NCBI GenBank assembly: GCA_944392815.1 | Contig: CALXXY010000001.1 | Location: 205,237 to 269,236, forward strand | Source of the DNA: an uncultured Alphaproteobacteria bacterium | GTDB lineage: Bacteria > Pseudomonadota > Alphaproteobacteria > Rs-D84 | DNA: 64,000 nt | Reading direction: 5' to 3' | Shown: one piece after another, positions 1-17,237 of the stretch | Numbering within the stretch: the first letter of the stretch is position 1 | How the letters are laid out: every line of letters begins with the position of its first letter | The notes under the pieces: generated by a model | What the model saw: only the letters and a program-made list of their open reading frames with translations | Told to the model about the DNA's origin: nothing | Databases searched by the model: none | Position numbers and translations under genes: made by a program

Positions 1-163
1 ATTCACCATAAAGACCCATATTACAGCCCTTTTTTATACCATCGGTATCTTTATAACTAATATTTTTATTTTTTATCGTGCTAACTATATTTTGTGCTAT
101 TGTTGCAAAACCTAATAAATCTTTTTCAACATTAACTGTTGGAACTTCTGCCAAATTATTCAT
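1..163 (-). CDS. KAP-family P-loop NTPase, N-terminal part (runs off the window edge)
   Basis: Manual translation from ATG at 163: MNNLAEVPTVNVEKDLLGFATIAQNIVSTIKNK...GCNMGLYGE. The 'DLLGF..IA..I' start and 'GLYGE(W)' lead-in to Walker A are typical of KAP NTPases. Not in the ORF track. Confidence 0.65.
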   Translation of the reverse strand, partial: MNNLAEVPTVNVEKDLLGFATIAQNIVSTIKNKNISYKDTDGIKKGCNMGLYGE

Positions 164-464
164 ACATATGCCCTTTCATTATAAAGAATTGTATTATAAT
201 AGTATAAAACTAAATTCCTAGCATTAGAATAATGCGCCTCTAAAAGGCTATTAAAATTATCATCATAAAAATATCAAAATTTGATGCATATTGACTACTT
301 TCACTTATTTAACATAATTATTACCAAGAGTACTTCATTATAACAACAATAAGGAACTCTTATTCATATGTTTTTGGACAATTTAAAGATCACCTATCGA
401 TTTAAACTTGCACTTAGATCATCATTAAAAGCTCAAGGAGTTTGTTGCCATATTAGCACACCCT

Positions 465-893
465 TCATCCCTTTATATACGAATCAAATTTTTCTATAAA
501 ACTGCGTGCATTTAAAAACAACAACCTTACCTGTTCCATATTTATATGATTAATATTTATCGATGCTGTATGCGCGCTACTCTGATTCCTTAGATTTTTA
601 ATTTGCTGAATTGACGAAATTTCCTCGAATAAAAATACATTCTGTCCATTAGCACCAAGAACCCCTCTACAGTGATCAAACACATCTTCCGGTTCTTTAG
701 CATTGCATTTTTCACGTATTAAAATCAAATTAGCTTGTACATACTCATCAATTTCTGCATTAATTTTTACGATATAATATTCTGCTAATATGGCATTCAA
801 AAGGCCATAATTATTCCCGATTTTGACACTATCAGGAATTTCTTGCAAAATATTATTTATCAACTGCAAAAGCTGTTCCGAACTATTAAGCAC
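465..893 (-). CDS. HEPN-domain protein (putative RNase)
   Basis: 142 aa, helical-looking, with an RX5H motif 'LRNQSSAH' near the C-terminus; 10 bp downstream of the DUF262 gene; GTG start. Confidence 0.65.
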   Translation of the reverse strand: MLNSSEQLLQLINNILQEIPDSVKIGNNYGLLNAILAEYYIVKINAEIDEYVQANLILIREKCNAKEPEDVFDHCRGVLGANGQNVFLFEEISSIQQIKNLRNQSSAHTASININHINMEQVRLLFLNARSFIEKFDSYIKG

Positions 894-903
894 TAGTAAA
901 ACC

Positions 904-1950
904 CTATTTCAGTATATTTCTAGCTATTTCTAGTCGGGTATCAACGAATTTTTTTGACGTTGTCCCATTACCCCTCAGAATAATTTCCATATACTCTGGG
1001 TTTTGCTTTAAAAGTTCAAATTTTTCGGGTAAATTTTCCACTTCCCCGTTGTGCATCAATGCCACTATTACCGAGTCAAGCAAAGTATAATTTGGAATAT
1101 GGCTTTTATTTATTGAAAAGGGATGTTCTGGTAATACATTATCAATTTGTTCCACTGCTTTTAAGAAAAGTTCTTGCACATCTGTCTTTTCGCTATTTTT
1201 GTTAGACTCCATATATTCATTTAGATAAGACTTCATTACCCCCGTATATTCCACTTCATAAAAAGCGAAACAACGAAGCACTAACTCCAAATCCAAGAAA
1301 CGCTTTCCCAGTCCTTGTACCCCCAATATATTTTGCCAATGCATATTTTTATTTGTCTCTTCTAAAACCATAAGAAATTTGCCGTATGCTATACTTCTTC
1401 GAATTTCCATATTATTCAAAGACACCCCTCCGGTATTTAATCTTTCAAAAATCTTATATAAAATAGACCTATCGTTAAAATTTGTTGGACGTATAACAGT
1501 CGCTGACAACACAACATTTTGCAATCTTCGTTGTTGCACTTGATCTAATTCACTAAACTTTTTATTACAATATGGGCTATTTTCATTTAACTTTTTTAAT
1601 TTGAATTCATCATTTAAAAAGGCCGCAATAGTACTTATACGCTGCAAACCATCAACAATAGAAAAACTTGCGCCATCTTTTGTAAACAAAAACACCGGAG
1701 GGACAGGCAACCCCATAAAAAAAGATTCTATTAAACGAGATTTACGAACATCATCCCACACGGGCCGACGTTGAAAATCAGGTACATTAAAAGTATGGTC
1801 TTTAAAATATTTAGAGTAATTTTCTAGCGTGTAAAAAGCGGGATATGTATTAATTTCATAATTTGTATTATCAGGCTCCATTTCGTCTTCTTCGATAATT
1901 TCTCTTTGTTTATCAATTTCTTCTAACCGCAATAAAACATCATCTGCCAT
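904..1950 (-). CDS. DUF262 (ParB/Srx-like) domain protein
   Basis: DUF262 motifs 'VPDFQRRPVW', 'SRLIES..MGLPVP', 'IVDGLQR', 'IFERLNTGG..L...EIR'. Confidence 0.9.
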   Translation of the reverse strand: MADDVLLRLEEIDKQREIIEEDEMEPDNTNYEINTYPAFYTLENYSKYFKDHTFNVPDFQRRPVWDDVRKSRLIESFFMGLPVPPVFLFTKDGASFSIVDGLQRISTIAAFLNDEFKLKKLNENSPYCNKKFSELDQVQQRRLQNVVLSATVIRPTNFNDRSILYKIFERLNTGGVSLNNMEIRRSIAYGKFLMVLEETNKNMHWQNILGVQGLGKRFLDLELVLRCFAFYEVEYTGVMKSYLNEYMESNKNSEKTDVQELFLKAVEQIDNVLPEHPFSINKSHIPNYTLLDSVIVALMHNGEVENLPEKFELLKQNPEYMEIILRGNGTTSKKFVDTRLEIARNILK

Positions 1951-2173
1951 GATTTTAACACCCCTATAAATAGTTAATTAGTGTATTTAGTATATAAAAA
2001 TATGTGTTTTTAAGCAAGAACTGTTATCAATAACATAAAAAATAATATACCCCCGATAACACTATACGTTCGAAACATTTTCTTTACAAGAAAGCATTCC
2101 AATATCCACAGCCTTTTTCATGGAGAAACAAATCATACTATTTGCAATAAATTGTACACACATCAAAAATTTA

Positions 2174-2201
2174 TTGACTTTACAGCATTTTATTTTACCA
2201 T
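2174..2201 (+). promoter_or_regulatory. Putative sigma70 promoter for the ProRS-like/AsnRS-like operon
   Basis: TTGACT (2174-2179), 16 nt spacer, TACCAT (2196-2201), about 30 nt before ATG 2231. Confidence 0.35.
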
Positions 2202-2230
2202 GCTTGTTATCAAAATAAAGGTTTATTAAC

Positions 2231-3427
2231 ATGCGGTTATCATCTATTCCGTACTCTGCGAGTATAAACTTACTTCAGTGCAATAAATCTGTTCCTTGTA
2301 ATCGTTTACTGGCCGACACAAACCTTATTCAACAAAATAGCCCTGGACATATTATATATACACCAATAGTTCAAAAAATAAAAAAGAACATTGAAAACAT
2401 CACATTGGAAAACGCTGAGAAATACGGTTTCAATGAAATGCTGTTTCCGGTTTTGATGGAAACCAAGCTTTTAGACGCATCAGGCAAAACTCAAGAATAT
2501 GCCGATGAATTTTATGCACCGTCCGATTCAAAAGGAAATTTGATTATCTCGCCAACCACGGAAGAAAGACTGATAGATTTTGTGGCACGCAGTGGCGTTT
2601 TATCCTATAAATCATTGCCTATGCGATTTTCACAGGTGTCTAATGTATACAGAAATTTGAAAAGAACTGAAGGATTGTATAAATCACGAGAAATTTCATG
2701 TGTTGTTTTGACTGCTATTGACAAAGATAATGCAACTTATTTACAAACAATGAAAGATTTCAGATTGTTATGTGAAGAATCATTCAAACAAATGGGCATC
2801 CCAAATTTTTATATCCAAGATAAAATGTCTGGCGCAGTTGAATTCTTTTATACAACAGAGTTAGCTGATAGACCGCTAAGCAAAAGTATTATCAACAACT
2901 TTGGAAACAAGAACAAGTTTGAAACCCAAGAATTGTTTGGTAGTTTATCCATGGGCTATCCTTTTAAACAGAGTGAAAATTTCAATTTATTTTACACGGA
3001 CAACAGAGGCACACGCAAGAAACCTGTAGTCAGCACATATGGTATCGGAACCCAACGTTGTATCCACACATTATTTGAACAAGCGAAAAACGGGCGTACA
3101 GATGCGTTTTCTCCAGCGGTACGTCCTTTTGACGTTGATATTATTGTATTATCCAAAGACACCCAACATGCTCAAATTAAGATATTGGCCGAACAATTGC
3201 AAAAAAATAAGATCCATTATTGTATCGACGATCGTAATAATAGCATGAAAGATAAAATGCGATTTTCGGAATTCTTTTCCATACCATGTCGTATTATTAT
3301 CGGTGACAAAGAAATTGCACAACAACAATATTCTGTAAAACCGTTGACGGTAAATGAGCCAATGTATGTTGATATAGCAAAAGCAATAGAACTTGTAAAA
3401 CAATTAACAATAGAGAGAGTGAGATGA
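2231..3427 (+). CDS. Divergent prolyl-tRNA synthetase paralog (class IIa aaRS core + anticodon-binding domain)
   Basis: Motif 1 region 'YTPIVQKIKKNIENI..FNEMLFPVL', 'SPTTEE', motif 2 'YRNLKRTEGLYKSREI', motif 3 'YGIGTQR', C-terminal 'IDDR..MKDKMRFSEFFSIPCRIIIGDKE'. Confidence 0.8.
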   Translation: MRLSSIPYSASINLLQCNKSVPCNRLLADTNLIQQNSPGHIIYTPIVQKIKKNIENITLENAEKYGFNEMLFPVLMETKLLDASGKTQEYADEFYAPSDSKGNLIISPTTEERLIDFVARSGVLSYKSLPMRFSQVSNVYRNLKRTEGLYKSREISCVVLTAIDKDNATYLQTMKDFRLLCEESFKQMGIPNFYIQDKMSGAVEFFYTTELADRPLSKSIINNFGNKNKFETQELFGSLSMGYPFKQSENFNLFYTDNRGTRKKPVVSTYGIGTQRCIHTLFEQAKNGRTDAFSPAVRPFDVDIIVLSKDTQHAQIKILAEQLQKNKIHYCIDDRNNSMKDKMRFSEFFSIPCRIIIGDKEIAQQQYSVKPLTVNEPMYVDIAKAIELVKQLTIERVR

Positions 3428-4428
3428 CCCGACCTGTATCTTCCTGGAACAACCCAAAGCAACACTTAGACAAACTGTTAACAACACCTTGGTATAGAGT
3501 CATTAACAAAATATTTTCTGAGATATTGGTACTTACTCACGATTTTTATAAAACTGAAAATATTGCACCCACAATTTTTCCAATTACTACTGGTTCTGTC
3601 AGTAGTCCTTTTGGGCTTGGGAGTGATTCTTTGCCAGTAAAAATCAAAATTAAGAATAATGACATATATTTGGCAGATTCTATGCAGTTTTCATTGGAAA
3701 TTGCATCTCGCTTGAACACCAATGGAGCATATTATATTATGCCGTCTTTTCGTGGCGAAGATATGGATGCCCGTCATCTTAACGAATTCGTTCATTCAGA
3801 GGTCGAAATAAAGGGCTCTCTGGACGATGTTATGGCGTTGGCCGAACGTTACATAAAATTTCTTATCAAGGGATTAAAGTTATCTTGCGCAACAGAAATT
3901 ACAGAAGTATGTGGCACAACGGAACACTTAGATACAGCTTTGGCACGTCCATTTCATAAAATTAGATTTGAAACCGCTATGCAAGAATTAGCCAGCGTCG
4001 AGGATGCATTTAAAAGGTTGGATGATAAATTATACGCTATTACATCTGCTGGAGAACATGCGTTGATTGACAAATATGGTGATTTTACATGGATAACAAA
4101 CATGCCTCACAAAGCAGTGCCTTTCTATCAAGCAGAAGAACCTGACACAGAATATTCTATGACAGGCGATTTACTGGCTGGAATTGGCGAAATATTAGGC
4201 TGTGGACAACGTGTATTCTCAGCTCAAGACGCAATTAATTCTTTAGATAATCACAATATTGACAAGACTGGTTATCAATGGTATATCCACATGCGTGAAA
4301 TAAATCCTCTACAAACATCAGGCTTTGGAATGGGGATAGAGCGGTTTATTTTATGGTTGTTAAAACACAACGACATCCGTGATTGCACTTTACTGATTCG
4401 CAACCACAAGGATGTCGTATTTCCTTAA
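3424..4428 (+). CDS. AsnRS/AspRS catalytic-domain-only paralog (archaeal asparagine synthetase A / AsnRS2-like amide ligase)
   Basis: 'YLADSMQF', motif 2 'SFRGEDMDARHLNEFVHSEVE', 'GEILGCGQR', motif 3 'TSGFGMGIERFILWL'. Only 334 aa, no N-terminal OB-fold. ATGA overlap with the upstream gene. Confidence 0.85.
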   Translation: MTRPVSSWNNPKQHLDKLLTTPWYRVINKIFSEILVLTHDFYKTENIAPTIFPITTGSVSSPFGLGSDSLPVKIKIKNNDIYLADSMQFSLEIASRLNTNGAYYIMPSFRGEDMDARHLNEFVHSEVEIKGSLDDVMALAERYIKFLIKGLKLSCATEITEVCGTTEHLDTALARPFHKIRFETAMQELASVEDAFKRLDDKLYAITSAGEHALIDKYGDFTWITNMPHKAVPFYQAEEPDTEYSMTGDLLAGIGEILGCGQRVFSAQDAINSLDNHNIDKTGYQWYIHMREINPLQTSGFGMGIERFILWLLKHNDIRDCTLLIRNHKDVVFP

Positions 4429-5393
4429 TGTTTAAGGATAGTTAAAGAATTATCAGAAATTTTTACCTGACCACCAATTGGTAAGGTTACCATTGGATAA
4501 GTGTGTCCAAAATCGATGTTGGCCAGCACAGGCATAGCCTTTAATTCTGGATGAATATTAAATATAGAGACAATATCTTCTTTAGATATTTCGTTTTTCT
4601 GTTCCATGCGTCCAAACAATATTCCACGAACATTTTTAAACCAGGGTTGATGTATTGTGGATTGCAAAATTCTATCCAATATGTACTTGTTACCACCCTC
4701 TATTTCCACCGCCAAAATCACATCTTCATCAATGGGCATATACTGTGTGCCATACAACAATTGGACAGTTGTGGCTTCGCCACCAATCAGGGTACCGGTA
4801 GCATTTCCATGGTTAATTACCCAAAAGCCGTCGTTTTCATGAAAAGTTCTATCTTCTTGGTTTATAAACCATTCAGGGTCGTCACTCCATTTTGTGCTGG
4901 CCACTAATGTCTTTTCAGAATTATCAAACAGTATGTGTTTCAAATAGTCCATAGAATAATCTGCGCCGTATTTCATTCCCAATGTAGAAAAATGTGGTCC
5001 ATAATATGAAACAATACCTGTTTTTGCCAGTATTGCGTTTTGTAATGCAGCAATGTCAGAATACCCGATTAACATCTTAGGATTTTGCCTTATCAAATCA
5101 TAATCTATTAAATCCAGCAACTGATTAGAATTAAAACCACCAATAACTGTGAATATAGCTTTTACATTACTGTCTTTATACGCATCGTGAATATCGTTCA
5201 GACGGGCCACCACAGGTGAAGAAACAAAGGCGTCTATAATGTCCAGATTTTTCCCAAAAGATACTTTCAACCCCATATCTTCCAATCTTTGTTGGGCCAA
5301 GGCTCTTACATCTTCGCCAATAATTTTATACGACATAGCCGGCGCAATAATACGTACTTCATCACCAGCTTTTAGTTTTTGTGGAAAAATCAT
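4425..5393 (-). CDS. mccF: MccF-like S66 serine peptidase (LD-carboxypeptidase family)
   Basis: 'P.KLKAGDEVRIIAPA', 'IGGFNSNQLL', 'GYSD' (catalytic Ser), 'DFGHT' (catalytic His), aromatic loop 'KWSDDPEWF'. Confidence 0.88.
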   Translation of the reverse strand: MIFPQKLKAGDEVRIIAPAMSYKIIGEDVRALAQQRLEDMGLKVSFGKNLDIIDAFVSSPVVARLNDIHDAYKDSNVKAIFTVIGGFNSNQLLDLIDYDLIRQNPKMLIGYSDIAALQNAILAKTGIVSYYGPHFSTLGMKYGADYSMDYLKHILFDNSEKTLVASTKWSDDPEWFINQEDRTFHENDGFWVINHGNATGTLIGGEATTVQLLYGTQYMPIDEDVILAVEIEGGNKYILDRILQSTIHQPWFKNVRGILFGRMEQKNEISKEDIVSIFNIHPELKAMPVLANIDFGHTYPMVTLPIGGQVKISDNSLTILKH

Positions 5394-5404
5394 CTCTCTC
5401 TCCT

Positions 5405-6229
5405 TTATTTATTTGTGCCAAATACAAATATATTATTACCACGAGCAGCCACATCATTGTTTTTGATATGCTCTTTTTCCATATCAAAAATCCGTTGAAA
5501 AATTTCTTTATTTTCTAGTATATCGGCTATTTCGCCAGTTTGTCCACGCAATTGGGTTTCTTGATACCCAGGATAAATCAGATTTGGAAAACCAGAACAA
5601 AAATCAACTGTTATATTATGCTTTTTCATCATATCCTTGATGCTGTTCGGCGAGAACATATTAATATATGGCATTTGATCTGTAAAACGACCACGTCCAG
5701 ACAGACATTTATTTGCCTCATCAATATTTCCCAGTTTTGTATTAAAGAATGCTGCGTGATACATATTTGGTGCCAATGTACAAATTATACCGCCTTTTTT
5801 TGTTACGGATTTTAACTGTTCAAAAAAATTATCAACATTTTCACCTACGAAACCGATAACATTATGAAAATTAAATACAAAATCAAACTGTTCGTCTACT
5901 TGTGACAAATCGTTCAAATCTTGTAACATAAAATCCCATCTTCCCTGATACGGAATTGACTTATGTTTAGCTACATCCAACATTTCTTTGGAAAAGTCTA
6001 TCGTAACACCAGAACACTCTGGAAATTCCTCTAATAATTTATGAGACCAACGACCTGTACCACCACCCGCATCACAAAACCTGAAATTCTTAGGTAATTT
6101 AGGAATAATATATGTTTTTATGGAATCCCACAACAGGGCATCTGATAACCGCCAATAACTTTGATTTTCTACCAAGTCATATTCTGATGCTTTCTCTGCA
6201 AAATATTTTAATACAGAATCTTTGTACAT
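5405..6229 (-). CDS. Class I SAM-dependent methyltransferase
   Basis: SAM-binding 'CDAGGGTGRWS', 'IDFSKEMLDVA', 'QFDFVF', 'KKGGII'. Confidence 0.9.
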   Translation of the reverse strand: MYKDSVLKYFAEKASEYDLVENQSYWRLSDALLWDSIKTYIIPKLPKNFRFCDAGGGTGRWSHKLLEEFPECSGVTIDFSKEMLDVAKHKSIPYQGRWDFMLQDLNDLSQVDEQFDFVFNFHNVIGFVGENVDNFFEQLKSVTKKGGIICTLAPNMYHAAFFNTKLGNIDEANKCLSGRGRFTDQMPYINMFSPNSIKDMMKKHNITVDFCSGFPNLIYPGYQETQLRGQTGEIADILENKEIFQRIFDMEKEHIKNNDVAARGNNIFVFGTNK

Positions 6230-6242
6230 AGAACCCTCCTCT

Positions 6243-7520
6243 TTATCTAAGTTTTGTCTGTTGTGTTAATCTTATTAAATCGTTAACTGACATCTGTGTA
6301 ACGTTACCATTTTTGCGATCTTTTACCTCGACATTGCCTGTATTAAAGAATGTTTTACCGATAATTATTCTATTTGGAATACCAATAAGGTCACTTTCTG
6401 CAAATTTAATACCTCCACGTACATCTTTGCGGTCGTCATATAAGACATCAAATTGTGCATTTAATAACTGTTGATATATATTGTCTACAACAGCTATTTC
6501 GTCATCTTTTACCGCCATTGAAATTAGATGCCATTCAAACGGCGCTATTTTAGCAGGCCATACCAATCCCCTGTCGTCACTTAAGCACTCTGCAACAGTA
6601 CCCATAACACGGCTTGGACCAATACCATAACACCCCATGATAATAGGTTTGCTTTGGCCCTTGTTATCAATAAAATTCGCATCAAACGGTGCTGTGAAAC
6701 GTGTACCAAGCTTAAATATGTTTCCAACTTCTACAGCGCGTTTTTGTTCAAATGTTTTTTCTATACCATCCGTATAGTTTGGAATAATATCGCGCAAAGC
6801 ACATTTATCTCCGATAATTTCACGATTGATAGCAATTTTTGTCCCTGGAATTATATAAATGGTATCTTCACCGGCATCGGTCAATGTTTGGAATTCATGA
6901 GAATATTTTGCAAACGCACCTCCACTGGCATATGTAAAATAAGTTTTATCACCAATACCACAATCCGTGTAGAACTCCATATACATTTGAGCAACTTTTT
7001 CATAATACATATCTAAATCTGCCTGACTTTCATGAAAAGAATACAAATCATTCATACGAAATTCTTTACACCGGAACAAGCCAGACTTTGAACGAGGTTC
7101 ATCTCTGAACTTGTTTTGAATCTGAAATACCGCCTTTGGCAAGTCTTTATAAGAAGAGATAAAATTAGTCACAAAAGGCGTAACAACCTCTTCGTTTGTT
7201 GGACTTAAGGCATATTCTTTATCTGCATGGCCATGAATCTTATATAAAACATCTATCTTATCCCAACGACCGGTTTGCTTCCAAACATCTGACGGCTGCA
7301 AAACAGGCATCATAACTTCTTGGCCGTTTACAGTTTGCATATACTGACGGATTAAATTCTCAATTTTGTTCAATGTTCTAAAGCCCAATGGCATATAAGA
7401 ATAAGCCCCCCCCATTAATTTATGAATAAAGCCTGCGCGTGTCAACAACTGGGCGTTTTTAGACATCTCTTGTACATTGGAGGCTTTTTGTGTTTTATAA
7501 AACAAGTTACTTTGGCGCAT
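6243..7520 (-). CDS. proS: Prolyl-tRNA synthetase, short bacterial type without INS editing domain (second, island-borne copy)
   Basis: 'LLTRAGFI', 'YSYMPLG', 'SPTNEE', 'FQIQNKFRDEPR', 'VEVGNIFKLG', 'MGCYGIGPSR', 'GLVWP..IAPF', 'LYDDR', 'DLIGIP'; 425 aa. Confidence 0.9.
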   Translation of the reverse strand: MRQSNLFYKTQKASNVQEMSKNAQLLTRAGFIHKLMGGAYSYMPLGFRTLNKIENLIRQYMQTVNGQEVMMPVLQPSDVWKQTGRWDKIDVLYKIHGHADKEYALSPTNEEVVTPFVTNFISSYKDLPKAVFQIQNKFRDEPRSKSGLFRCKEFRMNDLYSFHESQADLDMYYEKVAQMYMEFYTDCGIGDKTYFTYASGGAFAKYSHEFQTLTDAGEDTIYIIPGTKIAINREIIGDKCALRDIIPNYTDGIEKTFEQKRAVEVGNIFKLGTRFTAPFDANFIDNKGQSKPIIMGCYGIGPSRVMGTVAECLSDDRGLVWPAKIAPFEWHLISMAVKDDEIAVVDNIYQQLLNAQFDVLYDDRKDVRGGIKFAESDLIGIPNRIIIGKTFFNTGNVEVKDRKNGNVTQMSVNDLIRLTQQTKLR

Positions 7521-7647
7521 AACAAATACCTTTTGTGTTGCCTACATATACACTCTTCTGTGCTAAGAATACCGAAATCATAGGAAAAATCAAGAAGTTC
7601 TTGAATATAAAGCTATCAAAAAACAGCGTTTATAGTCCATATTAAAA

Positions 7648-8820
7648 TCATACACTGTTTATCATCCTATCCACGGCTTTTTGCATAGAGGCACGGACTG
7701 GATCGGCAGACAAACGGGCATAAATAGCAGTTGCAGCGGTTGATTTATGCCCCAAAGACCTGCCAATTACATTCATGCTTGCTCCTGTAATCGCTTGATA
7801 ACTTCCCATAGTTCTACGTAAATCATGTAGTCGTAGATTATCTATATTCGCTCGTCTTAGAAGACTTTTCCATGCACGTTTTGGCTCTTCCAGATGGCCA
7901 CTGGCACTTTGTTCACTTGGTAACACCCAAGAACTATTACTATTTTGTTTAATTTTTAATAATAATTCTCTTAACTGTTCGATAATCGGGACCTGCATAG
8001 GTTCACCATTTTTAGTATCTGATAAGTATATAAAGCCATTTACTAAGTCTATCTGAGACCAGCGCAGGCTCAATACATTACTTCTACGCTGTCCAGAATA
8101 TAGAGAAATCAGCACATAATTCTTAAACACATCATTGGGTTCGTTATTTAATGCGTCAAACAATCGTTTTAATTCGTCATCTCGTAAAAATCTATCCCGA
8201 CTTATTTCCCTGAACATTTTTATACCATCAGTTGGATTTTCAAAACGTTTCGGGAATCCGCATTCATAAGCTTTGTTATACATATGTCTGATAAGCGCCA
8301 GCATACGATTGGCGGTATACGAACTTACCGTTTGTCGCAAGAAGTTATGATGTCGCGCTACTTCATCACGGCTTATTGTTCGCATCTGACGATTATGAAA
8401 TACAGACAAATGATTTCTAAAAGTAGCATTATCGTTAATTTGCGTTTTCTGCTTTTTATGCGTTAAGGAATGCACAGGTAAATATACTTTTTCATAATAT
8501 TCTTTCAATGTCATATCATGCAATTCATCAAAGCGTTCTTGCGCTGGATCTTCGCCGCATATTGCCCTTTCACGCATTGTATGCGCTTTACGACGCGCAG
8601 TTTCCAATTCAACATGTCCGAACTTACCTATCTTTATACGTTTAGGCATCCCCTGATATTTCATATAGGCATAAAATGTTTTAGAGCCACCATAAGAAAC
8701 AATTAAACACAGACCATCTTTTGAGCCTGAATCATAATACACAACCTGGTTTTTTTCCTTGGTTGGAATAGGCAAAGAAGCTATTGCTTTTTTAGTAAAA
8801 TTTATGGTCTGTGTTTTCAT
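7648..8820 (-). CDS. int: Tyrosine recombinase/integrase (P4-like, N-terminal arm-binding domain)
   Basis: N-terminal 'DGLCLIVSYGGSKTF...RIKIGKF'; catalytic 'SGQRRSNV', 'DTKNG', 'LHDLRRT', 'LGH', 'TAIYAR'. Confidence 0.93.
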   Translation of the reverse strand: MKTQTINFTKKAIASLPIPTKEKNQVVYYDSGSKDGLCLIVSYGGSKTFYAYMKYQGMPKRIKIGKFGHVELETARRKAHTMRERAICGEDPAQERFDELHDMTLKEYYEKVYLPVHSLTHKKQKTQINDNATFRNHLSVFHNRQMRTISRDEVARHHNFLRQTVSSYTANRMLALIRHMYNKAYECGFPKRFENPTDGIKMFREISRDRFLRDDELKRLFDALNNEPNDVFKNYVLISLYSGQRRSNVLSLRWSQIDLVNGFIYLSDTKNGEPMQVPIIEQLRELLLKIKQNSNSSWVLPSEQSASGHLEEPKRAWKSLLRRANIDNLRLHDLRRTMGSYQAITGASMNVIGRSLGHKSTAATAIYARLSADPVRASMQKAVDRMINSV

Positions 8821-8825
8821 ATTTT

Positions 8826-8873
8826 TTTGCTACTTATTTGCTACTGATGGCATTTTTTGCTACCGTTTGCTAC
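8826..8873. repeat. Four TTTGCTAC direct repeats, probable integrase arm-type binding sites
   Basis: Copies at 8826-8833, 8837-8844, 8856-8863 and 8866-8873, between the integrase start and the att core. Confidence 0.7.
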
Positions 8874-8970
8874 CAATTTTGATTAAACTATAACAAACTT
8901 AGAAATCGTTGTAAAGCGCAGAATACTAAGAAAAATTTAACATTGTAAAACACCGTTAAACATACGACTT

Positions 8971-9020
8971 TCTGATTTGTAATCAGAGGGTCGTTGGTTC
9001 AAGTCCGACAACTGGCACCA
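8971..9020 (+). pseudogene. 3' half of tRNA-Thr(TGT); attachment site at the island boundary
   Basis: Anticodon arm TCTGA-TTTGTAA-TCAGA, T-arm GTTGG-TTCAAGT-CCGAC, acceptor AACTGGC-ACCA. No 5' acceptor strand (GCCAGTT) or D-arm upstream. Confidence 0.85.
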
Positions 9021-9024
9021 GATT

Positions 9025-9052
9025 TTCCCCGCTGGGTGGCGGGGATTTATTT
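9025..9052 (+). terminator. Intrinsic terminator after the tRNA fragment
   Basis: TCCCCGC...GCGGGGA hairpin followed by TTTATTT. Confidence 0.6.
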
Positions 9053-9077
9053 ATGATTTATATATCAACTGAAAACA

Positions 9078-9473
9078 TCAATATCCCGACACGACCAAAC
9101 TGTGTATTAAATCGTTAATTTGTTTGGCTATTGCTGTGGAATCAAAACGTTTTAAGCCATTGGTTGCGATATCTGACATTTGTTTGGCTTTTGCCGGGTG
9201 TTCAAAAACAAACTTCATGTTTTTTGCCAACGCGTTGGCATCGCCAGTTTCAAATAATAAACCGCCGCGTCCATTCAACAGTATTTCACGTGGTCCGTTT
9301 TTACACTTGGACGAAATGCAGGGAACACCCAATGCCACAGATTCAAGCAACACTGTCGGCAGCCCTTCGCTTTCGCTGGATAAAATATTTGCAATGGCGC
9401 CCCGCATAATGCCATATGGATTATTCAGGGCACCAGTAAACACAATGCGTTTTACGGACGGCAATTGGGGCAA
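9078..9473 (-). pseudogene. GT4-type glycosyltransferase, C-terminal fragment
   Basis: 'FTGALNNPY', 'LSSESEGLPTVLLESVALGVPCISS....GPREIL....GLLF'. N-terminal domain missing. Confidence 0.75.
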
Positions 9474-9908
9474 TTATTAAATGAACTGCAATCAAACGAT
9501 ATTTTAATTGCCGCCGAGATATCACGGCTGGGTCGATCTTTGCTGGAGGTCATGCATATACTGGAATACTGTTTGAATAAAAATTGCCAGGTGTGGACCA
9601 TCAAAGAAAATTACAGATTGGGCAACGATATTCAATCCAAAGTTATGGCGTTTGCGTTTGGATTATCGGCCGAAATAGAACGCAATTTAATATCGCAACG
9701 AACCAAGGCGTCATTGGAAAGCGTGCGGGCAACCGGCAAACGATTGGGGCGGCCTTTTTCGGCGCAATCAAAAAAATTGAAACTGTCCAGCAATACCAAA
9801 AAAGTAAAAAAATTGTTGGACATGGGGTTGACCAAGTATCGGATTGCCAAAATAATGCAGGTTAAACAATCAACTGTATCCAGATTTATTGTCCGAATGG
9901 GCTGGTGA
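9465..9908 (+). pseudogene. Serine recombinase/invertase (Mpi-like), lacking the catalytic N-terminus
   Basis: 'DILIAAEISRLGRS', 'FAFGLSAEIERNLISQRTKASL', 'GKRLGRP', C-terminal HTH. No 'Y.RVS' catalytic segment. Confidence 0.75.
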
Positions 9909-9952
9909 ATATTTCCCCCACCCCGCCGGCGGCGGGGGGGGTATGATGGTGA

Positions 9953-10471
9953 TTATTTTTTACGTTTTGTGGGTTTGGATTTTTTGTTTTTTGGGGTCAC
10001 GGAATCATCGTCGTACACAGCGTAATCGTATTCGTCATATTCTGTATCAATTTCGTTGGGCGCGACGTCCATGATTTCATTCAACACACGACGGGCGCGG
10101 GGATTGCGGTCTGAATATTTTTTCAGTCCAACAACCAATGCCGCTGTTATCATTTTTTCCATGTCTGCGCTGGACACATGTTCAGACACCCGGTCGCGGA
10201 TATTTTGCGCCATATGTTTGACTGCATGTTTGGCTTTGTACAGCAACGAATGTCTGCGACGAATTTTATCGATGATTTCCATAATCCACATGATTATCAA
10301 AAACGCCACCAATGGCACCGCCACACACCAGACAAAATATTTTAACACAGAATCACTGCAGAACGACAGACCGAACATAGCGTTGCAAGTGTTCGGACAA
10401 TGCAGCAGCATAACTGCAGCGATTTCGTACAGCGCCAAAATTGTTAACCCCAGTTTATATTTTAAAAACAT
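9953..10471 (-). CDS. Hypothetical membrane protein (2 N-terminal TM segments)
   Basis: 172 aa ORF with two hydrophobic stretches and an acidic then basic tail. Confidence 0.6.
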   Translation of the reverse strand: MFLKYKLGLTILALYEIAAVMLLHCPNTCNAMFGLSFCSDSVLKYFVWCVAVPLVAFLIIMWIMEIIDKIRRRHSLLYKAKHAVKHMAQNIRDRVSEHVSSADMEKMITAALVVGLKKYSDRNPRARRVLNEIMDVAPNEIDTEYDEYDYAVYDDDSVTPKNKKSKPTKRKK

Positions 10472-10505
10472 TTTATTTCTCCCTTGGTTTTATTTGATTA
10501 ATTGA

Positions 10506-11249
10506 TTAAAAATTCATAAAGCGGATACCCATCAGCACAGTCCAATCATTGCGCCGCCAATTCCCGCCCAGGCGATGTCCTGCACGAATCCAAACGCCTG
10601 TGGTTCTGTTCAGCATTGTACCCAATTCCAATTCGGCCAAAAATTCCTGGCGGCCGGTTTCGTAATTTACCCATACCTGGGGATCGGCCAGAACCCACCA
10701 ACCCTGGTTAGACGCATATCCCAGCAACATTCTGTATTGGCCCTGGTTTATATCTTGGGAAATGGCGGGGTCGGTGTTATGCAGCGAAATGAACTGTTTC
10801 GCGACCAGCGCGCCGAATATGTTATGCCCAAACGAATACACGTATCCCAAAATCGGGTCAAAAGTATATTGCTGGGCGCCCAGGGTATCTTCGGTTGCGG
10901 TGGGCAATAAAAATTCTGCTGCACCAATCAGGGTATGACGCCCCCAGGTATGCTGGGCACGGCCACGCAATGTTAAATCGCCAATGCCGTTGTCGGAACG
11001 ACCGTGGCCACTGTACCGCACCAGCGGCAATTCTGCATTAATACCGAACACGCGTTTAATTGCATGGTCGTATTTTAATGTCAACGATGTGATTGATGAA
11101 TCACCAAATGCACGCAACTGTGGCAACAGTTCCAGTTTGGTTAAATTGTCCGCTGGGTTAATACCACGTGCGGTGTCTGCGCTGTCCGCGGCCCATACGT
11201 TTGGTGCGGCCAGGATTACGGTCAAAACCGTCAGTATTGTTTTTTTCAT
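10506..11249 (-). CDS. Outer-membrane beta-barrel protein (MetA/phenol-pathway transporter-like)
   Basis: Signal peptide MKKTILTVLTVILAAPNVWA, 'GIGDLTLR', 'LPTATEDTLG', amphipathic strands, terminal Phe. Confidence 0.6.
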   Translation of the reverse strand: MKKTILTVLTVILAAPNVWAADSADTARGINPADNLTKLELLPQLRAFGDSSITSLTLKYDHAIKRVFGINAELPLVRYSGHGRSDNGIGDLTLRGRAQHTWGRHTLIGAAEFLLPTATEDTLGAQQYTFDPILGYVYSFGHNIFGALVAKQFISLHNTDPAISQDINQGQYRMLLGYASNQGWWVLADPQVWVNYETGRQEFLAELELGTMLNRTTGVWIRAGHRLGGNWRRNDWTVLMGIRFMNF

Positions 11250-11357
11250 TTTTGTTTCCCCCATCTGAAAACATTGTGACATGGTGTGACAAAAAAATCA
11301 CCAGGAACGAAAACCCACCGCAAATGCGGTGGGCGTACGTATAATTTATCAGACAAA

Positions 11358-12230
11358 TTAATCCGATGTGACCGGGGCGTCGGCACTGCCATACTGGGCG
11401 GCGGCGTCCGTGGTGCCAACATCATCGGCCGCGTTTTCCATTTCTGCGGTTGCCGCGGCGGTGGCATCTGTGGCGGATTGTGCGTCCGCGGCCGCAGCGT
11501 CCGCAGCGGCGCGTTCTTCCTCGGCACGGGCGGCGTTTTCAATTTGCAGCAATTGTTTTTCCAACGCGGAACGTTCGGACGTTTTGTATCCCGTTTCGGC
11601 ATCAGATTCGGTGGCCCCGTCGTCAGTGGACGTGCCGCGCATTGCATCAACCGCAGGATTAATCAGATTTTCAAATATTTCCTGGTTCGCCTGGGTTCCG
11701 GTCATGTCGCGCGCCAACAGTTTACTGCCGGGGCCGGGGAAAAACCATTCGTCCAATTTCATTGCTGTCAATTGCATGATTGGGCGTGTGCGGGCATTTT
11801 CGACCCACGGTGCGGGACGTGGCGCGTCCGAATAATACCACAGCGCACACCAGTATACTATGCCCATAATCACAATACCGCGGATTAAACCGAATATTAT
11901 CCCCAGGGTACGATCGGTCACCTTCATAATACTGTTTTGTATTTTTTCGCGCAGACGTTGATTGAAAAAACCAATCAACATTAATATTACGAAAAATACT
12001 ATGAAATATGACGCGACCAACGTACCAACAGTGGACGCAGTTAAATCAAACCAACCCTGTAATAATTTGTCCAGCAACGGCGATATGAAACGTGCCGCAA
12101 TTGCCGCGATTACCCACGACAGTGTTGCAACCGTTTCGAAAATACCACCACGAATGCTGGCCCATACTGTGGACGCCACCAGGACGCCCACATAAATCCA
12201 ATCCAAAGTAGTTAAATCAAACATCGGCAT
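11358..12230 (-). CDS. cvpA: CvpA family membrane protein with acidic Ala-rich tail
   Basis: 'LDWI...S...SIRGGIFE..ATLSWVIA', 'DRTLGIIFGLIRG'. Confidence 0.85.
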   Translation of the reverse strand: MPMFDLTTLDWIYVGVLVASTVWASIRGGIFETVATLSWVIAAIAARFISPLLDKLLQGWFDLTASTVGTLVASYFIVFFVILMLIGFFNQRLREKIQNSIMKVTDRTLGIIFGLIRGIVIMGIVYWCALWYYSDAPRPAPWVENARTRPIMQLTAMKLDEWFFPGPGSKLLARDMTGTQANQEIFENLINPAVDAMRGTSTDDGATESDAETGYKTSERSALEKQLLQIENAARAEEERAAADAAAADAQSATDATAAATAEMENAADDVGTTDAAAQYGSADAPVTSD

Positions 12231-12267
12231 AATCCAATTTTATTGTTATGGTTGTGGATAAATCTTT

Positions 12268-12867
12268 TTATTTTTTCTTTTTATCCTTGCGTACCAAAAC
12301 AAACGCCAATGCTGCGACCAAAACAATTAACAGGATATAGAAATACACCGGTGACGCGGGGCTATTTTTTTTTTCGTTTTGCGTTGCGTCGTCATTTGCG
12401 GCATTTTGTGCGGCCGCATTGTATTCTGTAATTTTGCCCTGGCGATTGGCGTGCGATTTTCTGAATTCATCAGCGTTATCGTCCAATGCCTTTTTATTTT
12501 CGGCGGCGGTATCTTTCTGGTCCTGGGACATGCCAACCTCGACCGCGTCACGCAATTCCTGTTGCATGAAATCGGCATAGCCCTGGAAACATTTGTCGCC
12601 AACAACGATAACCGGCACACCACCGCTGTCGTATTCGCATTTCTTTAACGCTTCCTGGAATGCGGGCAGATTTGCCCGGTCCATAACATTAATTTGAACA
12701 ATGCGCAAATCTGGATATTCGTATACTATTCTGCTGGTGAAAAAATCACGCGCATGATGGCAATGCGGGCATGACGGCGAATAATACAGTGTGATATCGG
12801 CCGCATTTGCCGCGCCCATGAATAAAAAACCAAATACTGCGAATAACGTTGATAATTTTTTCATCAT
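12268..12867 (-). CDS. Exported glutaredoxin/thioredoxin-like protein with C-terminal membrane anchor
   Basis: Signal peptide, 'YYSPSCPHCH', 'GVPVIVVGD', C-terminal TM helix + KDKKKK. Confidence 0.75.
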   Translation of the reverse strand: MMKKLSTLFAVFGFLFMGAANAADITLYYSPSCPHCHHARDFFTSRIVYEYPDLRIVQINVMDRANLPAFQEALKKCEYDSGGVPVIVVGDKCFQGYADFMQQELRDAVEVGMSQDQKDTAAENKKALDDNADEFRKSHANRQGKITEYNAAAQNAANDDATQNEKKNSPASPVYFYILLIVLVAALAFVLVRKDKKKK

Positions 12868-12926
12868 TTCTCCTTTGACTGATTGGTTGCATTATAGAAA
12901 TCCAGCGCACTGTGTGCAAGCCATTT

Positions 12927-14318
12927 TTATTTCACATATCTGTCATAAATAACAGGGGTTTTGTTTATGGTATAAATTCTGTCGTCTGAATCACGGTTGT
13001 ACCAGACATACAATATGTTTACCATATCGTTTTCCGCATACGGGTCAGCATATCCAACAACCTGGCGCTGGGTGTTATGGGGGAAAACAGCGTGAAAAGT
13101 ATTGTCAAACACCCGGGAATATTTATCGCGGAACGATTGGCTGGCCACCACGTTCATGATTAATATGCCGTCATGGGCAATATGCGATTTTACACGCTGC
13201 ATGAATTCGGCGGTGATAAAGCCCTCGGGTATCTGGAAAGAATTTGAATAAACGTCCACCAAAATCATATCGTATTTTTCAGTGCTGTTTTTCAAATACT
13301 GACTGGCGTCCTGGACCAGGAATTTTTTATTTTCAGGCAACGGACGGCCCAGAAAATATTTTTCGGAAATTTCCTGTAATGTATGTTCTATGTCCACAAA
13401 AGTGTAATCATTAAACGTATCGTTCAGGCCGGCTGTAAATCCGCCCGTCCCCAGCACCAATATTTTATGCCGTCTGTCGGTGGGCAAATTGTATATGAAA
13501 TGTGCGTTCAGGTAATCTATGTATTCCGCGTTCTGGCCAGTTGTTGGATTATGCACAGACATCGGCAACCCGTTCATGTACAGCACACGCGTATTGTCTG
13601 TGAACTGGGTCACTGAAATAGTAGAATTCGCATTGTTTACCAAAACACCAAAACGATTGTATTGCACGTAATCGCTGTTGATAATCATGGTTGGAATCAA
13701 AATGCACAATCCCAACAATATCGTCCACCAACGCGGGCGCGTGACCAAGGCCGCAAACAATGCCAATGTGATAATTAATATCACTGTGTAATTTACACCG
13801 ATAAACGGCATTAAAATCAGCGTGGTCAGTAATGACCCCATAACGGAACCAATCGTGTCCCACGCCATAATATTACCCGTATAGTTTGTATTATATTTAT
13901 GCAGGCAACGTGACAGCAACGTTGTGTTGAACCCAAACAAAAATGGGCCAATGGATAAAAATAAAAATGAAAATATAAACGTCTGTAATACGCTGGACGT
14001 AATGCCCCATTGATACAGGCGCATAAAATATTCCATAACCAATGGAAAACTGGCGGCGCACAGGGCAAATACAGCAATCACGATGAAACTGGCGGCCAAT
14101 ATTGTTCTGATTCGTTTGTGCGCAATGCGTTCAGATGACCCCAGGAAATATCCCAATGACATAAATCCCAAAAATATGCCCATTATAATACTGGTGATAA
14201 CCGCACTGGAACCGACCCAGAACGATAACTGGCGCAGTACGACCAATTCAAAAGATAAACTGACATACCCGTTCAGAAAAATTAAAAATATTAACCATAT
14301 GCGTAATTTGCGTGACAT
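12927..14318 (-). CDS. Fused membrane domain/spermidine synthase-like methyltransferase
   Basis: N-terminal TM bundle ('ELVVLRQLSFWVGSS', 'TIGSVMGS'), C-terminal 'ILVLGTGG', 'DASQYL', 'YDMILVDVY'. Confidence 0.85.
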   Translation of the reverse strand: MSRKLRIWLIFLIFLNGYVSLSFELVVLRQLSFWVGSSAVITSIIMGIFLGFMSLGYFLGSSERIAHKRIRTILAASFIVIAVFALCAASFPLVMEYFMRLYQWGITSSVLQTFIFSFLFLSIGPFLFGFNTTLLSRCLHKYNTNYTGNIMAWDTIGSVMGSLLTTLILMPFIGVNYTVILIITLALFAALVTRPRWWTILLGLCILIPTMIINSDYVQYNRFGVLVNNANSTISVTQFTDNTRVLYMNGLPMSVHNPTTGQNAEYIDYLNAHFIYNLPTDRRHKILVLGTGGFTAGLNDTFNDYTFVDIEHTLQEISEKYFLGRPLPENKKFLVQDASQYLKNSTEKYDMILVDVYSNSFQIPEGFITAEFMQRVKSHIAHDGILIMNVVASQSFRDKYSRVFDNTFHAVFPHNTQRQVVGYADPYAENDMVNILYVWYNRDSDDRIYTINKTPVIYDRYVK

Positions 14319-15756: not shown

Positions 15757-15784
15757 AAAAATCCCGCGTATTGCGGGATTTTTT
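15757..15784. terminator. Bidirectional intrinsic terminator
   Basis: AAAATCCCGC-GTATT-GCGGGATTTT. Confidence 0.7.
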
Positions 15785-17219
15785 AATATGATTTTGCAAC
15801 ATATACGTATGTTGGGTCATTATCGTCCAGGCACCGGCGCGATATTTTGTATTTTTCCATCAATTCATCAAATTTTTCATTTGTTGTTAAATCGTATTTA
15901 ATACGGAAAAATCCAATTTTACCGGCCGCCAATGCTGATTCCAGTGCGTCAATATCCGCAACATCGTGAATCATAGTTTCATTGCGACGAACGACCGCGT
16001 CATACATATCGTGCTGGATTTGTTCCAACATATTTTTCACGTCGGCCACAAATGCGTCCGTGGACATAGTTTGTTTTGATGATTTACCCAAATCACGACG
16101 TGTGACCGTCACATTGTTTTCGTCCATTTCACGCGCGCCAATTTCCACACGCAGTGGCACGCCGCGCTTAATCCATTTCCACATTTTATCCGGCGCGCGC
16201 ATATCAGATGTATCAACCAACACACGCACGTCGATGTTTTCCAATTGTTCGCCCAATTTCTGTGCGAACGCGTTTAATGCGTCGGCCGTGTCGTCACGCG
16301 TGATTGGGATAATCACAACCTGGTACGGGGCGATGGCGGGCGGCAACACCAGCCCATCGTCGTCGGAATGCGTCATGAACAAACTGCCCATCATACGCGT
16401 GGATACGCCCCACGATGTTGTCCAGGCATGTTTTAACGCACCATCTGTATCCAAAAATTGAATACCGAATGATTTTGAAAAATGCTGGCCCAGGTCATGT
16501 GATGTTCCGGCCTGTAAAGCTTTGCCGTCCTGCATAATGTGTTCCAGTGTATATGTGTGATCGGCACCGGCAAATCGTTCCTCGGGCGTTTTTTCACCCA
16601 TGATTGACGGTATGGCCAAAATTTCGCGCATATAGTCACCATACACGCGGTGCATTTTACGCGCGTCTGCATTTGCCTCTTCATGTGTGGCGAATGCGTT
16701 GTGACCTTCCTGCCAATAAAATTCTGATGTGCGCAGGAACAGGCGTGGCCGCATTTCCCAACGCATAACATTTACCCACTGATTCAATTTCAGCGGCAAA
16801 TCGCGATACGATTGTACCCAACGCGACATTGCGTCACCGATAATTGTTTCAGACGTCGGACGAATAACATACGGTTCCGTTAATTTTGCGTCTGGGTCGG
16901 GCTGTAATGTGCCGTCAATCATTTTCAGACGATAATGCGTGACAACGGCGGCCTCTTTGGCAAAGCCGGCGACATGTTCGGCCTCGCGATTAAAAAAATT
17001 GATTGGTATCAGTAATGGGAACTGAGCATTTTGCGCGCCACATTTTTTTATGCGTTTGTCCAATGCATCACGCATCAATTCCCAAATGGCCCAACCATAC
17101 GGCTTTATCGTCATGCACCCACGCACAGGCGCATTTTCCGCCAAATCGGCCGCAGTTATCAGGTTTTGATACCATTCGCTGAAATTTTCCGAACGGGTCG
17201 GTGTAATTGCTGTTTTCAT
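15783..17219 (-). CDS. proS: Prolyl-tRNA synthetase, archaeal/eukaryotic type (housekeeping)
   Basis: 'FSEWY', 'PVRGCM', 'RPTSET', 'QWVNVMRWE', 'LFLRTSEFYWQEGH', 'LQAGTSHDLGQHF', 'SWGVSTR', C-terminal 'KSY'. Confidence 0.95.
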   Translation of the reverse strand: MKTAITPTRSENFSEWYQNLITAADLAENAPVRGCMTIKPYGWAIWELMRDALDKRIKKCGAQNAQFPLLIPINFFNREAEHVAGFAKEAAVVTHYRLKMIDGTLQPDPDAKLTEPYVIRPTSETIIGDAMSRWVQSYRDLPLKLNQWVNVMRWEMRPRLFLRTSEFYWQEGHNAFATHEEANADARKMHRVYGDYMREILAIPSIMGEKTPEERFAGADHTYTLEHIMQDGKALQAGTSHDLGQHFSKSFGIQFLDTDGALKHAWTTSWGVSTRMMGSLFMTHSDDDGLVLPPAIAPYQVVIIPITRDDTADALNAFAQKLGEQLENIDVRVLVDTSDMRAPDKMWKWIKRGVPLRVEIGAREMDENNVTVTRRDLGKSSKQTMSTDAFVADVKNMLEQIQHDMYDAVVRRNETMIHDVADIDALESALAAGKIGFFRIKYDLTTNEKFDELMEKYKISRRCLDDNDPTYVYVAKSY

Positions 17220-17237
17220 TGTTTTTAATCTCTTTTA

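Follow-up and report, generated by a model that had tools for sequence, protein, structure and literature searches.

Within a 64,000-nucleotide stretch of DNA from an uncultured alphaproteobacterium of the Rs-D84 lineage (assembly GCA_944392815.1, contig CALXXY010000001.1, positions 205,237 to 269,236 of the forward strand; hereafter the window), five genes form a cassette whose products comprise two relatives of prolyl-tRNA synthetase (ProRS), a homolog of the agrocin 84 biosynthetic protein AgnA, a methyltransferase dependent on S-adenosylmethionine (SAM) and an S66 peptidase resembling MccF (Table 1). Throughout, ProRSx denotes the divergent 398-aa ProRS paralog, ProRS2 the 425-aa cassette ProRS, and AgnA-like the 334-aa protein that a preliminary description of this DNA had termed "AsnRS-like" (for asparaginyl-tRNA synthetase, AsnRS). 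The host assembly is 927 kb in size and 96.8% complete. That description had arranged the five open reading frames (ORFs) in two convergent groups, with an integrase beside them and a further ProRS farther along the window, and all of these were recovered where it had placed them. The two plus-strand genes share an ATGA start/stop overlap at 3424-3427, the convergent stop codons overlap as TTAA at 4425-4428, and the gaps between the minus-strand genes come to 11 and 13 bp from their coordinates, each as first described.

Table 1 Positions in the window of the cassette genes, the island that carries them and the housekeeping ProRS of the host
Feature	Positions	Strand	Basis
ProRSx, divergent ProRS-like class IIa enzyme, 398 aa, with anticodon-binding domain, no INS	2231..3427	+	PF00587 + PF03129
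AgnA-like enzyme, 334 aa, class IIb aminoacyl-tRNA synthetase core without anticodon domain	3424..4428	+	PF00152; AgnA homology
MccF-like S66 serine peptidase, 322 aa	4425..5393	-	PF02016 + PF17676
Class I SAM-dependent methyltransferase, 274 aa	5405..6229	-	PF13649 + PF08241
ProRS2, bacterial-type ProRS without INS editing domain, 425 aa	6243..7520	-	TIGR00409, 407.3 bits (cut-off 306.7)
Tyrosine integrase of the cassette-bearing island	7648..8820	-	PF00589 + PF13356
Low-GC integrative island, part inside the window	1..8970		GC and flanking repeats; remainder at G000:C1:199862-205236
attR, 52-bp tRNA-Thr(UGU) repeat	8971..9022		blastn
Housekeeping ProRS of the host, archaeal/eukaryote-like (E) type, presumed sensitive target	15783..17219	-	TIGR00408, 454.9 bits (cut-off 437)

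Searching plasmids by tblastn, we matched the AgnA-like protein to agnA of pAgK84, annotated "Agrocin84-synthetase", with 43.8% identity over 100% of the query (E 4e-88). The protein consists of a class IIb aminoacyl-tRNA synthetase (aaRS) core (PF00152) and, as the preliminary description had proposed for its AsnRS-like gene, lacks an anticodon domain. All five family members aligned share motif 2 (SFRGE..HL.EF.H.E.E) and motif 3 (GFGxGxER) without change, so the enzyme is predicted to bind ATP and form an adenylate. It misses the cut-offs for asparagine synthetase A (239.7 bits against 389 for NF005055 and 231 against 322 for NF005053), and none of 400 other genomes of the same class holds a relative at E<=1e-30; a housekeeping asparagine synthetase was rejected on these two grounds. 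When the protein was used to query the host genome, no other class IIb match appeared at E<=0.001, while AsnRS chains in the PDB matched at E 1e-23; possibly, the host has no AsnRS and obtains its Asn-tRNA through the amidotransferase route.

ProRSx fails the ProRS equivalog models, its best score being 145 bits against a cut-off of 558, and shares 23% identity with ProRS2. Its close family comprises 29 proteins at 46-100% identity, beyond which only canonical ProRS and threonyl-tRNA synthetase (ThrRS) proteins match, at 24% or less. A profile search with ProRSx over 1.84 billion representatives returned 70 proteins at E<=1e-30, of which about 40 are full-length proteins of around 400 aa that score above canonical ProRS. 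We built a quick tree from 59 hand-picked rows, with two ThrRS as root, and it carried two long-branch warnings; in it a ProRSx clade of 28 rows (SH-aLRT 96) stood apart from canonical ProRS, which took the 29 further rows, including five of the 26 distant rows that had been picked as ProRSx-like. The clade holds the window family, a protein of metagenome locus L015, proteins of Streptomyces and Xenorhabdus, and 20 metagenomic representatives, and an AgnA-like gene accompanies each member whose gene context was visible. The roles of the class II synthetase motifs in the active site are well established, and in ProRSx the T-x-E loop and the Arg residues of motifs 2 and 3 are retained, with the motif-2 Glu replaced by Leu, Ile or Arg in all clade members aligned. 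We propose that ProRSx would supply or transfer a prolyl group. The preliminary description had called the paralog degenerate; with no internal stop in eight of eight copies and a dN/dS of 0.05-0.10, it is divergent instead.

ProRS2, first described as a short ProRS, is by comparison with its models a complete synthetase of the bacterial type. Its alignment to Staphylococcus aureus ProRS (PDB 5znj) covers residues 1-223 and 403-558, leaving out about 180 residues of the INS editing domain, and retains motifs 2 and 3 (FRDE...REF and GCYGIG.SR) as well as the anticodon domain; because the alignment takes this form with its motifs intact, ProRS2 lacks the INS editing domain only. Together with 11 relatives it forms a 12-row clade (SH-aLRT 100) within canonical ProRS in the same tree. 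Two pairs of contigs bearing more distant ProRSx and ProRS2 relatives agree in length (29,797 bp and 13,386 bp), a hint that such relatives may pair up as well. ProRS2 is an extra copy alongside the E-type ProRS of the host, and is likewise carried by four of five other holder genomes, each with one or more additional ProRS-type matches. We propose that ProRS2 would serve as a resistant copy of the target, as a dedicated charger of tRNA-Pro, or as both. By analogy with AcmD and AcmF of ascamycin (see below), a role in charging tRNA for biosynthesis, which the preliminary description did not raise, appears as likely as pure immunity.

The S66 peptidase was identified at the outset as MccF-type, and its PDB matches bear this out, lying far nearer MccF-like chains (4e5s, E 4e-91; B. 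anthracis MccF, 1e-41; Escherichia coli MccF, 2e-30) than LdcA-type ones (4e-15). It is 29% identical to AgnC5, the "MccF-like protein" of the agrocin 84 cluster (E 1e-39), and 42% identical to the product of an S66 gene adjoining the AgnA-like gene of B. elkanii. The Ser of G-[YF]-SD, a Glu and the His of H-[TA]-x-P are conserved in five of five sequences, and we take these residues to be the Ser-His-Glu triad. A role as a self-immunity hydrolase that would cleave an aminoacyl-nucleotide is proposed. The class I SAM methyltransferase, also assigned correctly from the start, is the most conserved gene of the cassette across loci (68-90% identity). Its best named relatives are the acid O-methyltransferases BchM, CmoM, BioC and LahSB, all far under cut-off, and it is possibly a tailoring enzyme that O-methylates an acid group. 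Its AlphaFold2 model was poor (mean pLDDT 62.7), and an Atlas look-up gave generic methyltransferase clusters only. Azetidine-2-carboxylate synthase was considered and dropped, as the 15 matched PDB chains include no such enzyme.

Scans of species genomes and metagenome contigs yielded nine close loci. In seven of these all five genes occur in the same order and orientation, and the remaining two end at a contig edge inside the block. Identity to the window runs from 60-71% for ProRSx up to the values given above for the methyltransferase. The holders are Alphaproteobacteria metagenome-assembled genomes or Candidatus Enterousia, and are small (about 0.9-1.0 Mb). Flanks are mostly unrelated between loci, with varying neighboring genes. 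Computed pairwise for pairs with dS <1 only, dN/dS was, besides the ProRSx values above, 0.03-0.05 for AgnA-like, 0.05-0.10 for the peptidase, 0.035-0.083 for the methyltransferase and 0.02-0.04 for ProRS2. No internal stops were found in any of the eight copies of four genes or in the seven copies of AgnA-like considered (a two-piece copy in locus L012 was left out). Among the grounds on which, by the preliminary description, its proposal would fall are that the five genes never co-occur elsewhere and that the paralogs decay neutrally (dN/dS near 1). Since the genes stand together in seven of the nine related loci, with four of the families also joined in unrelated taxa, and dN/dS lies at 0.02-0.10, neither ground was found.

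The cassette lies on an integrative island whose boundaries could be placed. Across block and island GC is 0.30-0.38, against 0.43-0.52 outside. A complete tRNA-Thr(UGU) gene lies 5.4 kb upstream of the window start, at positions 14485-14560 of L022, the stretch of the host contig immediately upstream of the window (G000:C1), and forms attL. The last 52 bases of this gene, its 3' part (L022:14511-14562), recur as a perfect direct repeat (52/52 by blastn) just past the integrase gene, where they form attR. The island between the two repeats spans 14,345 bp. In loci L006 and L008 the cassette lies 2-3 kb from tRNA-Ser, against tRNA-Thr in the window, and in L008 it adjoins an integrase that is 53% identical to that of the window. 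The five genes are thus one horizontally mobile cassette under purifying selection. Its genes are accessory and rare: no ProRSx turned up in 60 relatives (36 of the same genus), and no AgnA-like gene in the 400 class genomes mentioned above.

Outside the close loci, we inspected 10 of the 79 plasmid records that match AgnA-like, and a tblastn search of plasmids with ProRSx gave two full-length relatives, in Streptomyces and Xenorhabdus. AgnA-like, ProRSx-like, S66 and methyltransferase genes occur together on these two plasmids and in metagenome locus L015. On plasmid NZ_CP109191.1 of Streptomyces sp. NBC_01707 (L016; record positions 269178-277320) an AgnA-like gene, an AgnB1-type methyltransferase, an oxidase, a ProRSx-like gene and an S66 gene stand in a row; the ProRSx-like gene overlaps the S66 gene, and the oxidase is of the xanthine-dehydrogenase type, with an FAD subunit and a Fer2/Moco subunit. 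The Xenorhabdus bovienii CS03 megaplasmid NZ_FO818638.1, from a symbiont of insect pathogens, carries an agn-like cluster at record positions 8493-20675 (L017), with AgnA-like, AgnB1-type methyltransferase, S66, nucleoside phosphorylase, VOC, GloA, an extra leucyl-tRNA synthetase (LeuRS; leuS), ProRSx-like, a major facilitator superfamily (MFS) pump and two reductases; it is probably a pathway to a leucyl-adenylate mimic. In L015, overlapping or abutting genes encode an ATP-binding cassette (ABC) exporter, AgnA-like (28% identity), ProRSx-like (28%), an AgnB1-type methyltransferase, S66, a RimL-type GNAT and a second methyltransferase. Upstream of the L015 AgnA-like gene, and in frame with it, lies a 51-codon ORF (L015:8799-9012) separated by one TAG, and the tblastn match to the window protein begins at 8958, ahead of the TTG start at 9012, which may reflect a misplaced start site, damage to the N-terminus or read-through.

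A further arrangement is found on two other plasmids. On NZ_CP068052.1 of Peribacillus psychrosaccharolyticus (L027), genes for an alanyl-tRNA synthetase (AlaRS; 595 aa) and an AlaRS-related protein (386 aa) face methyltransferase, AgnA-like and S66 genes, and NZ_CP053558.1 of Exiguobacterium sp. Helios (L019) has a similar AlaRS pair with methyltransferase and AgnA-like genes, the S66 gene being present in Peribacillus only. Both clusters also contain ATP-grasp and MFS genes. They form an alanine counterpart of the window cassette, and recall AcmD and AcmF of ascamycin. Given this alanine version, the AgnA-like core is constant and the aaRS that accompanies it varies (Pro, Leu, Ala).

We consider the most probable explanation, at roughly 60%, to be that the cassette is of the agrocin 84 type and would both build a non-hydrolysable mimic of prolyl-adenylate and protect its producer. 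The preliminary description had suggested the biosynthesis of an aminoacyl-nucleotide with self-immunity, aimed at ProRS, and comparison with the agn cluster and the recurring modules supports this as the best reading. We infer its product, pathway, target and means of self-protection as follows. The product would most likely be an N-prolyl nucleoside 5'-phosphoramidate, which may be methylated. The AgnA-like class IIb enzyme, using ATP, would form the phosphoramidate or carboxamide nitrogen link, and ProRSx would then deliver the prolyl group, either as an adenylating ligase or, in the manner of AcmF, from Pro-tRNA charged by ProRS2. After tailoring by the methyltransferase, product accumulating in the producer would be cleaved by the MccF-like peptidase, and ProRS2 would keep tRNA-Pro charged while the host E-type ProRS is inhibited.

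Several observations weigh against this interpretation. A 2021 review describes the biosynthetic pathway of agrocin 84 as unknown (PMC8323819); homology to AgnA therefore gives the kind of product and not the reaction. The methyltransferase of the window is another class I type than AgnB1: it aligns with AgnB1 over 113 residues of the SAM-binding part only (E 0.003), and gave no match to the AgnB1-type enzymes of Streptomyces, Xenorhabdus or L015. When ProRSx profiles were compared with AgnC1 in two hhalign comparisons, the probabilities were 0.2% and 0.8%, and only short motif-like stretches aligned. Because the Xenorhabdus ProRSx-like gene sits with a LeuRS, the fold of the paralog alone does not name the amino acid. 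Among the ten AgnA-like plasmid loci inspected, five (L020, L021, L024, L025 and L026) have no extra aaRS or aaRS-like partner and just five have an S66 gene, so the AgnA family is not tied to one pathway; the loci off the rule include a GNAT fusion (Pantoea), ATP-grasp neighbors (B. pseudomycoides) and nonribosomal peptide synthetase genes (another Streptomyces). No exporter was found in the 14.3-kb island or beside the cassette in the annotated loci. Lastly, in L012 the AgnA-like gene (11194-12194) matches as two overlapping pieces, residues 1-239 and 235-334, a pattern suggesting that this copy of the cassette is frameshifted or misassembled. The Pantoea fusion is a 427-aa protein of Pantoea agglomerans plasmid NZ_CP141611.1 (L020; record positions 70565-73076) in which an AgnA-like domain and a GNAT are joined, followed by an MFS pump only; this two-gene arrangement is present on six Pantoea plasmids among the matches listed.

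The remaining cargo of the island consists of a KAP-family NTPase, a DUF262 protein, the integrase and several ORFs without a family, and no transporter, sugar or opine genes were detected among the island ORFs scanned with Pfam. The DUF262/GmrSD_N protein (window 904-1950, minus strand) matches NsnA (E 9e-63) and PD-T4-2_A (E 6e-50) in PADLOC; with a 142-aa gene without a family that lies downstream of it (465-893, minus strand), it probably makes up a two-gene defense system on the island. The KAP-family P-loop NTPase (674 aa; L022:17884-19908, minus strand) lies inside the island just before the window. Three upstream ORFs have no family (L022:14664-15269, 15247-15759 and 16860-17222), and a fourth (L022:16165-16698) has a weak Rep-like match (E 7e-4). 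Just within both island ends is a 28-bp imperfect direct repeat (27/28; L022:14624-14651 and window 8820-8847), of which partial copies occur at window 8853-8879; these repeats may be arm-type sites of the integrase. About 55 bp past attR, at the island junction, a 131-aa ORF (window 9078-9473, minus strand) encodes only the C-terminal portion of a domain of the group 1 glycosyltransferases; the gene may have been truncated or its start misassigned. Window positions 1-9200 contain no Rfam family at E<0.5, and promoter-like sites (26 against 24.3 in shuffles) and terminator-like sites (3 against 3.5) show no excess. Sequencing runs of chicken gut metagenomes from several studies contain near-identical DNA; among the sequencing runs listed as holding the DNA, none is an RNA run.

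The company of defense genes had led the preliminary description to suggest a link between them and the cassette, which the analysis did not support: none of the five proteins has a specific match in PADLOC, and a defense-system reading of the cassette was rejected for that reason. The same chemistry might nevertheless be used inside the cell, with the cassette acting as an island-addiction device (post-segregational killing) or in abortive infection and with the S66 peptidase and ProRS2 as antidotes. Such use would account for the missing exporter and for the defense-gene company, namely the NsnA/PD-T4-2_A-like gene and the KAP NTPase on the same island and a DUF262 gene that adjoins the cassette in L013 too. 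The PADLOC result, in which the methyltransferase alone has a match and that a generic one, speaks against it, as do the flanking cargo, which differs among loci, and the relatives (agn, Xenorhabdus, Peribacillus and L015), whose MFS or ABC pumps are in keeping with secreted antibiotics; we judge it improbable. Slightly better placed, and still unlikely, is a purely protective cassette, in which ProRS2 and the MccF-like hydrolase guard against a prolyl-adenylate mimic made by other gut microbes and the other three genes are unrelated or accessory. The lack of an exporter on the island and the occurrence of the cassette in tiny genomes (about 0.9-1.0 Mb) within dense gut communities would suit such a role, and S66/MccF-like genes and spare aaRS genes are known resistance determinants (PMC8323819). 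However, AgnA-like is homologous to a biosynthetic gene, is translationally coupled to ProRSx and is kept with it and S66 across four cluster types, and purifying selection is equally strong on all five genes.

Two readings without an antibiotic fare worse. Truncated aaRS paralogs with modification roles like those of EpmA and GluQRS are established, and the anticodon-binding domain is kept in both ProRS-type proteins of the cassette, so that ProRSx and ProRS2 might act non-canonically on tRNA-Pro or on a protein, with AgnA-like and the methyltransferase completing the modification. This would leave the MccF-like hydrolase without a role, and the homology to AgnA points to a nucleotide antibiotic; the rarity of the cassette as a mobile accessory (0/60 relatives) also argues against it, and we regard this route as quite unlikely. 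It is most improbable of all that the block is unrelated metabolic cargo, in which AgnA-like is an ordinary asparagine synthetase A, ProRS2 a spare housekeeping ProRS and the other genes chance neighbors, even though NCBI names several relatives "asparagine synthetase A" and the host, having no other match to the AgnA-like protein, may lack its own AsnRS or AsnA. The AgnA-like score falls under all AsnA model cut-offs, the class-wide search was empty (0/400), the five-gene order is fixed in seven of nine loci despite unrelated flanks, and in other phyla, too, AgnA-like genes stand together with genes for S66 and aaRS proteins.

If the cassette does build a prolyl-adenylate mimic, gut bacteria whose genomes are very small would be a natural source of a ProRS inhibitor. 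The enzyme that forms the P-N bond of agrocin 84 is given as unknown in the 2021 review (PMC8323819), and a five-gene cassette with just the shared core would make the question testable in vitro. For genome mining, we suggest as a rule that the aaRS riding with an AgnA-like gene names the target, which among cultured strains picks Leu in Xenorhabdus, Ala in Peribacillus and Exiguobacterium, and Pro in Streptomyces. More tentatively, and with considerable doubt, the cassette could represent the smallest natural route (five genes, 5.3 kb) to an N-acyl phosphoramidate nucleotide. AgnA-like would make a nucleoside 5'-phosphoramidate, ProRSx would be a transferase of ProRS origin, dependent on Pro-tRNA, that prolylates its nitrogen, and ProRS2 would be the inhibitor-insensitive charger, giving a phosmidosine-like mimic of Pro-AMP (prolyl adenosine monophosphate) from gut bacteria of about 0.9 Mb by a mechanism that would be undescribed. 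Were this true, an AgnA-like core with a cognate pair of aaRS and aaRS-like proteins would by extension constitute a general, programmable rule (Pro, Leu, Ala and so on) for the biosynthesis of aaRS inhibitors.

Phosmidosine bears an O-methyl group, which would fit the methyltransferase of the cassette, and an 8-oxoadenine. The purine oxidase beside the ProRS-like enzyme of Streptomyces sp. NBC_01707 would suit an 8-oxoadenine prolyl-phosphoramidate, making that cluster a candidate for the phosmidosine genes; unlike it, the window cassette has no purine oxidase. As a natural N-prolyl nucleoside phosphoramidate and a Streptomyces antibiotic, phosmidosine exemplifies the kind of product that we propose here: it is described as a phosphoramidate nucleotide that "resembles proline-AMP" and that was made chemically from the free phosphoramidate and activated proline (PMC11229370, PMC6429109, PMC12203594). 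Our literature search, which covered few subscription journals, returned no paper on its gene cluster or biosynthesis, and the link is for this reason one of chemistry only; the same search returned no paper on a ProRS-linked AgnA-type cassette.

In microcin C systems, an MccF-family hydrolase confers immunity to an aminoacyl-nucleotide that contains a P-N bond; the cassette has a hydrolase of this family, and L015 also a RimL/MccE-type GNAT, a protein whose role in microcin C systems is known. The proposed target here is ProRS, whereas that of microcin C is aspartyl-tRNA synthetase (AspRS). The preliminary description held that the block does not match microcin C, and we agree, since Pfam scans of the larger ORFs of the island, eight in the window and six upstream (five of them in the island), gave no ThiF/MccB-like protein. 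Neither an MccA-like precursor nor an MccC pump was seen in the scanned ORFs; very short ORFs were not searched systematically, and 1951-2230 and 7521-7647 were read by eye.

In ascamycin biosynthesis, AcmD charges tRNA-Ala and the AlaRS-like AcmF, which lacks ATP-site residues, moves Ala onto the NH2 of a nucleoside sulfamate (PMC12945691). The likeness to the window lies in a canonical-type aaRS paired with a divergent paralog of the same family that has lost residues for normal adenylate formation, in ProRSx the motif-2 Glu with the motif-2 and motif-3 Arg kept, within a cluster for an aminoacyl-nucleoside inhibitor of an aaRS. The comparison is by description, and ascamycin differs in its sulfamate linkage, in drawing on the AlaRS family and in that AcmF is truncated, whereas ProRSx retains the anticodon domain and most ATP-site residues.

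The closest described system is agrocin 84, encoded on pAgK84 of Rhizobium rhizogenes K84. Its annotated region runs agnA, a SAM methyltransferase (AgnB1), agnB2 ("agrocin 84-resistant leucyl-tRNA synthetase"), agnC1, tailoring genes and agnC5. According to the review, AgnA carries an aaRS-type adenylation domain and was proposed to link the acyl moiety and AMP by a phosphoramide bond, AgnC1 shows a remote HHpred resemblance to ProRS, the resistant LeuRS AgnB2 gives immunity, and actinobacterial agn-like clusters have instead a methionyl-tRNA synthetase (MetRS) that may mark another target (PMC8323819). The cassette thus has homologs of AgnA (44%) and AgnC5 (29%) and, like the agn cluster, encodes a SAM methyltransferase, a protein resembling ProRS and an extra aaRS, which in agrocin 84 marks the target and may do so here, so that the claim of the preliminary description that no described system has this gene set no longer stands: the agn cluster has the AgnA homolog with an adjoining methyltransferase, AgnC5, the ProRS-like AgnC1 and the resistant AgnB2. 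The two differ in that the extra aaRS is a LeuRS there and a ProRS here, that ProRSx has no detectable relation to AgnC1, and that the agn cluster has 17 genes against five in the cassette, which is without genes for the modified pentanamide, the 3'-deoxy sugar, an opine-like carrier or an AgnG-type pump. They differ also in setting, agn being on a conjugative plasmid and the window cassette on a tRNA-Thr island of a gut bacterium of about 0.93 Mb. By these comparisons, each of the five families in the cassette can be paired, through homology or through its role, with a member of a known antibiotic cluster, and the cassette is best described as a new, minimal, proline-directed form of the agrocin-84-type clusters and not as a new kind of system.

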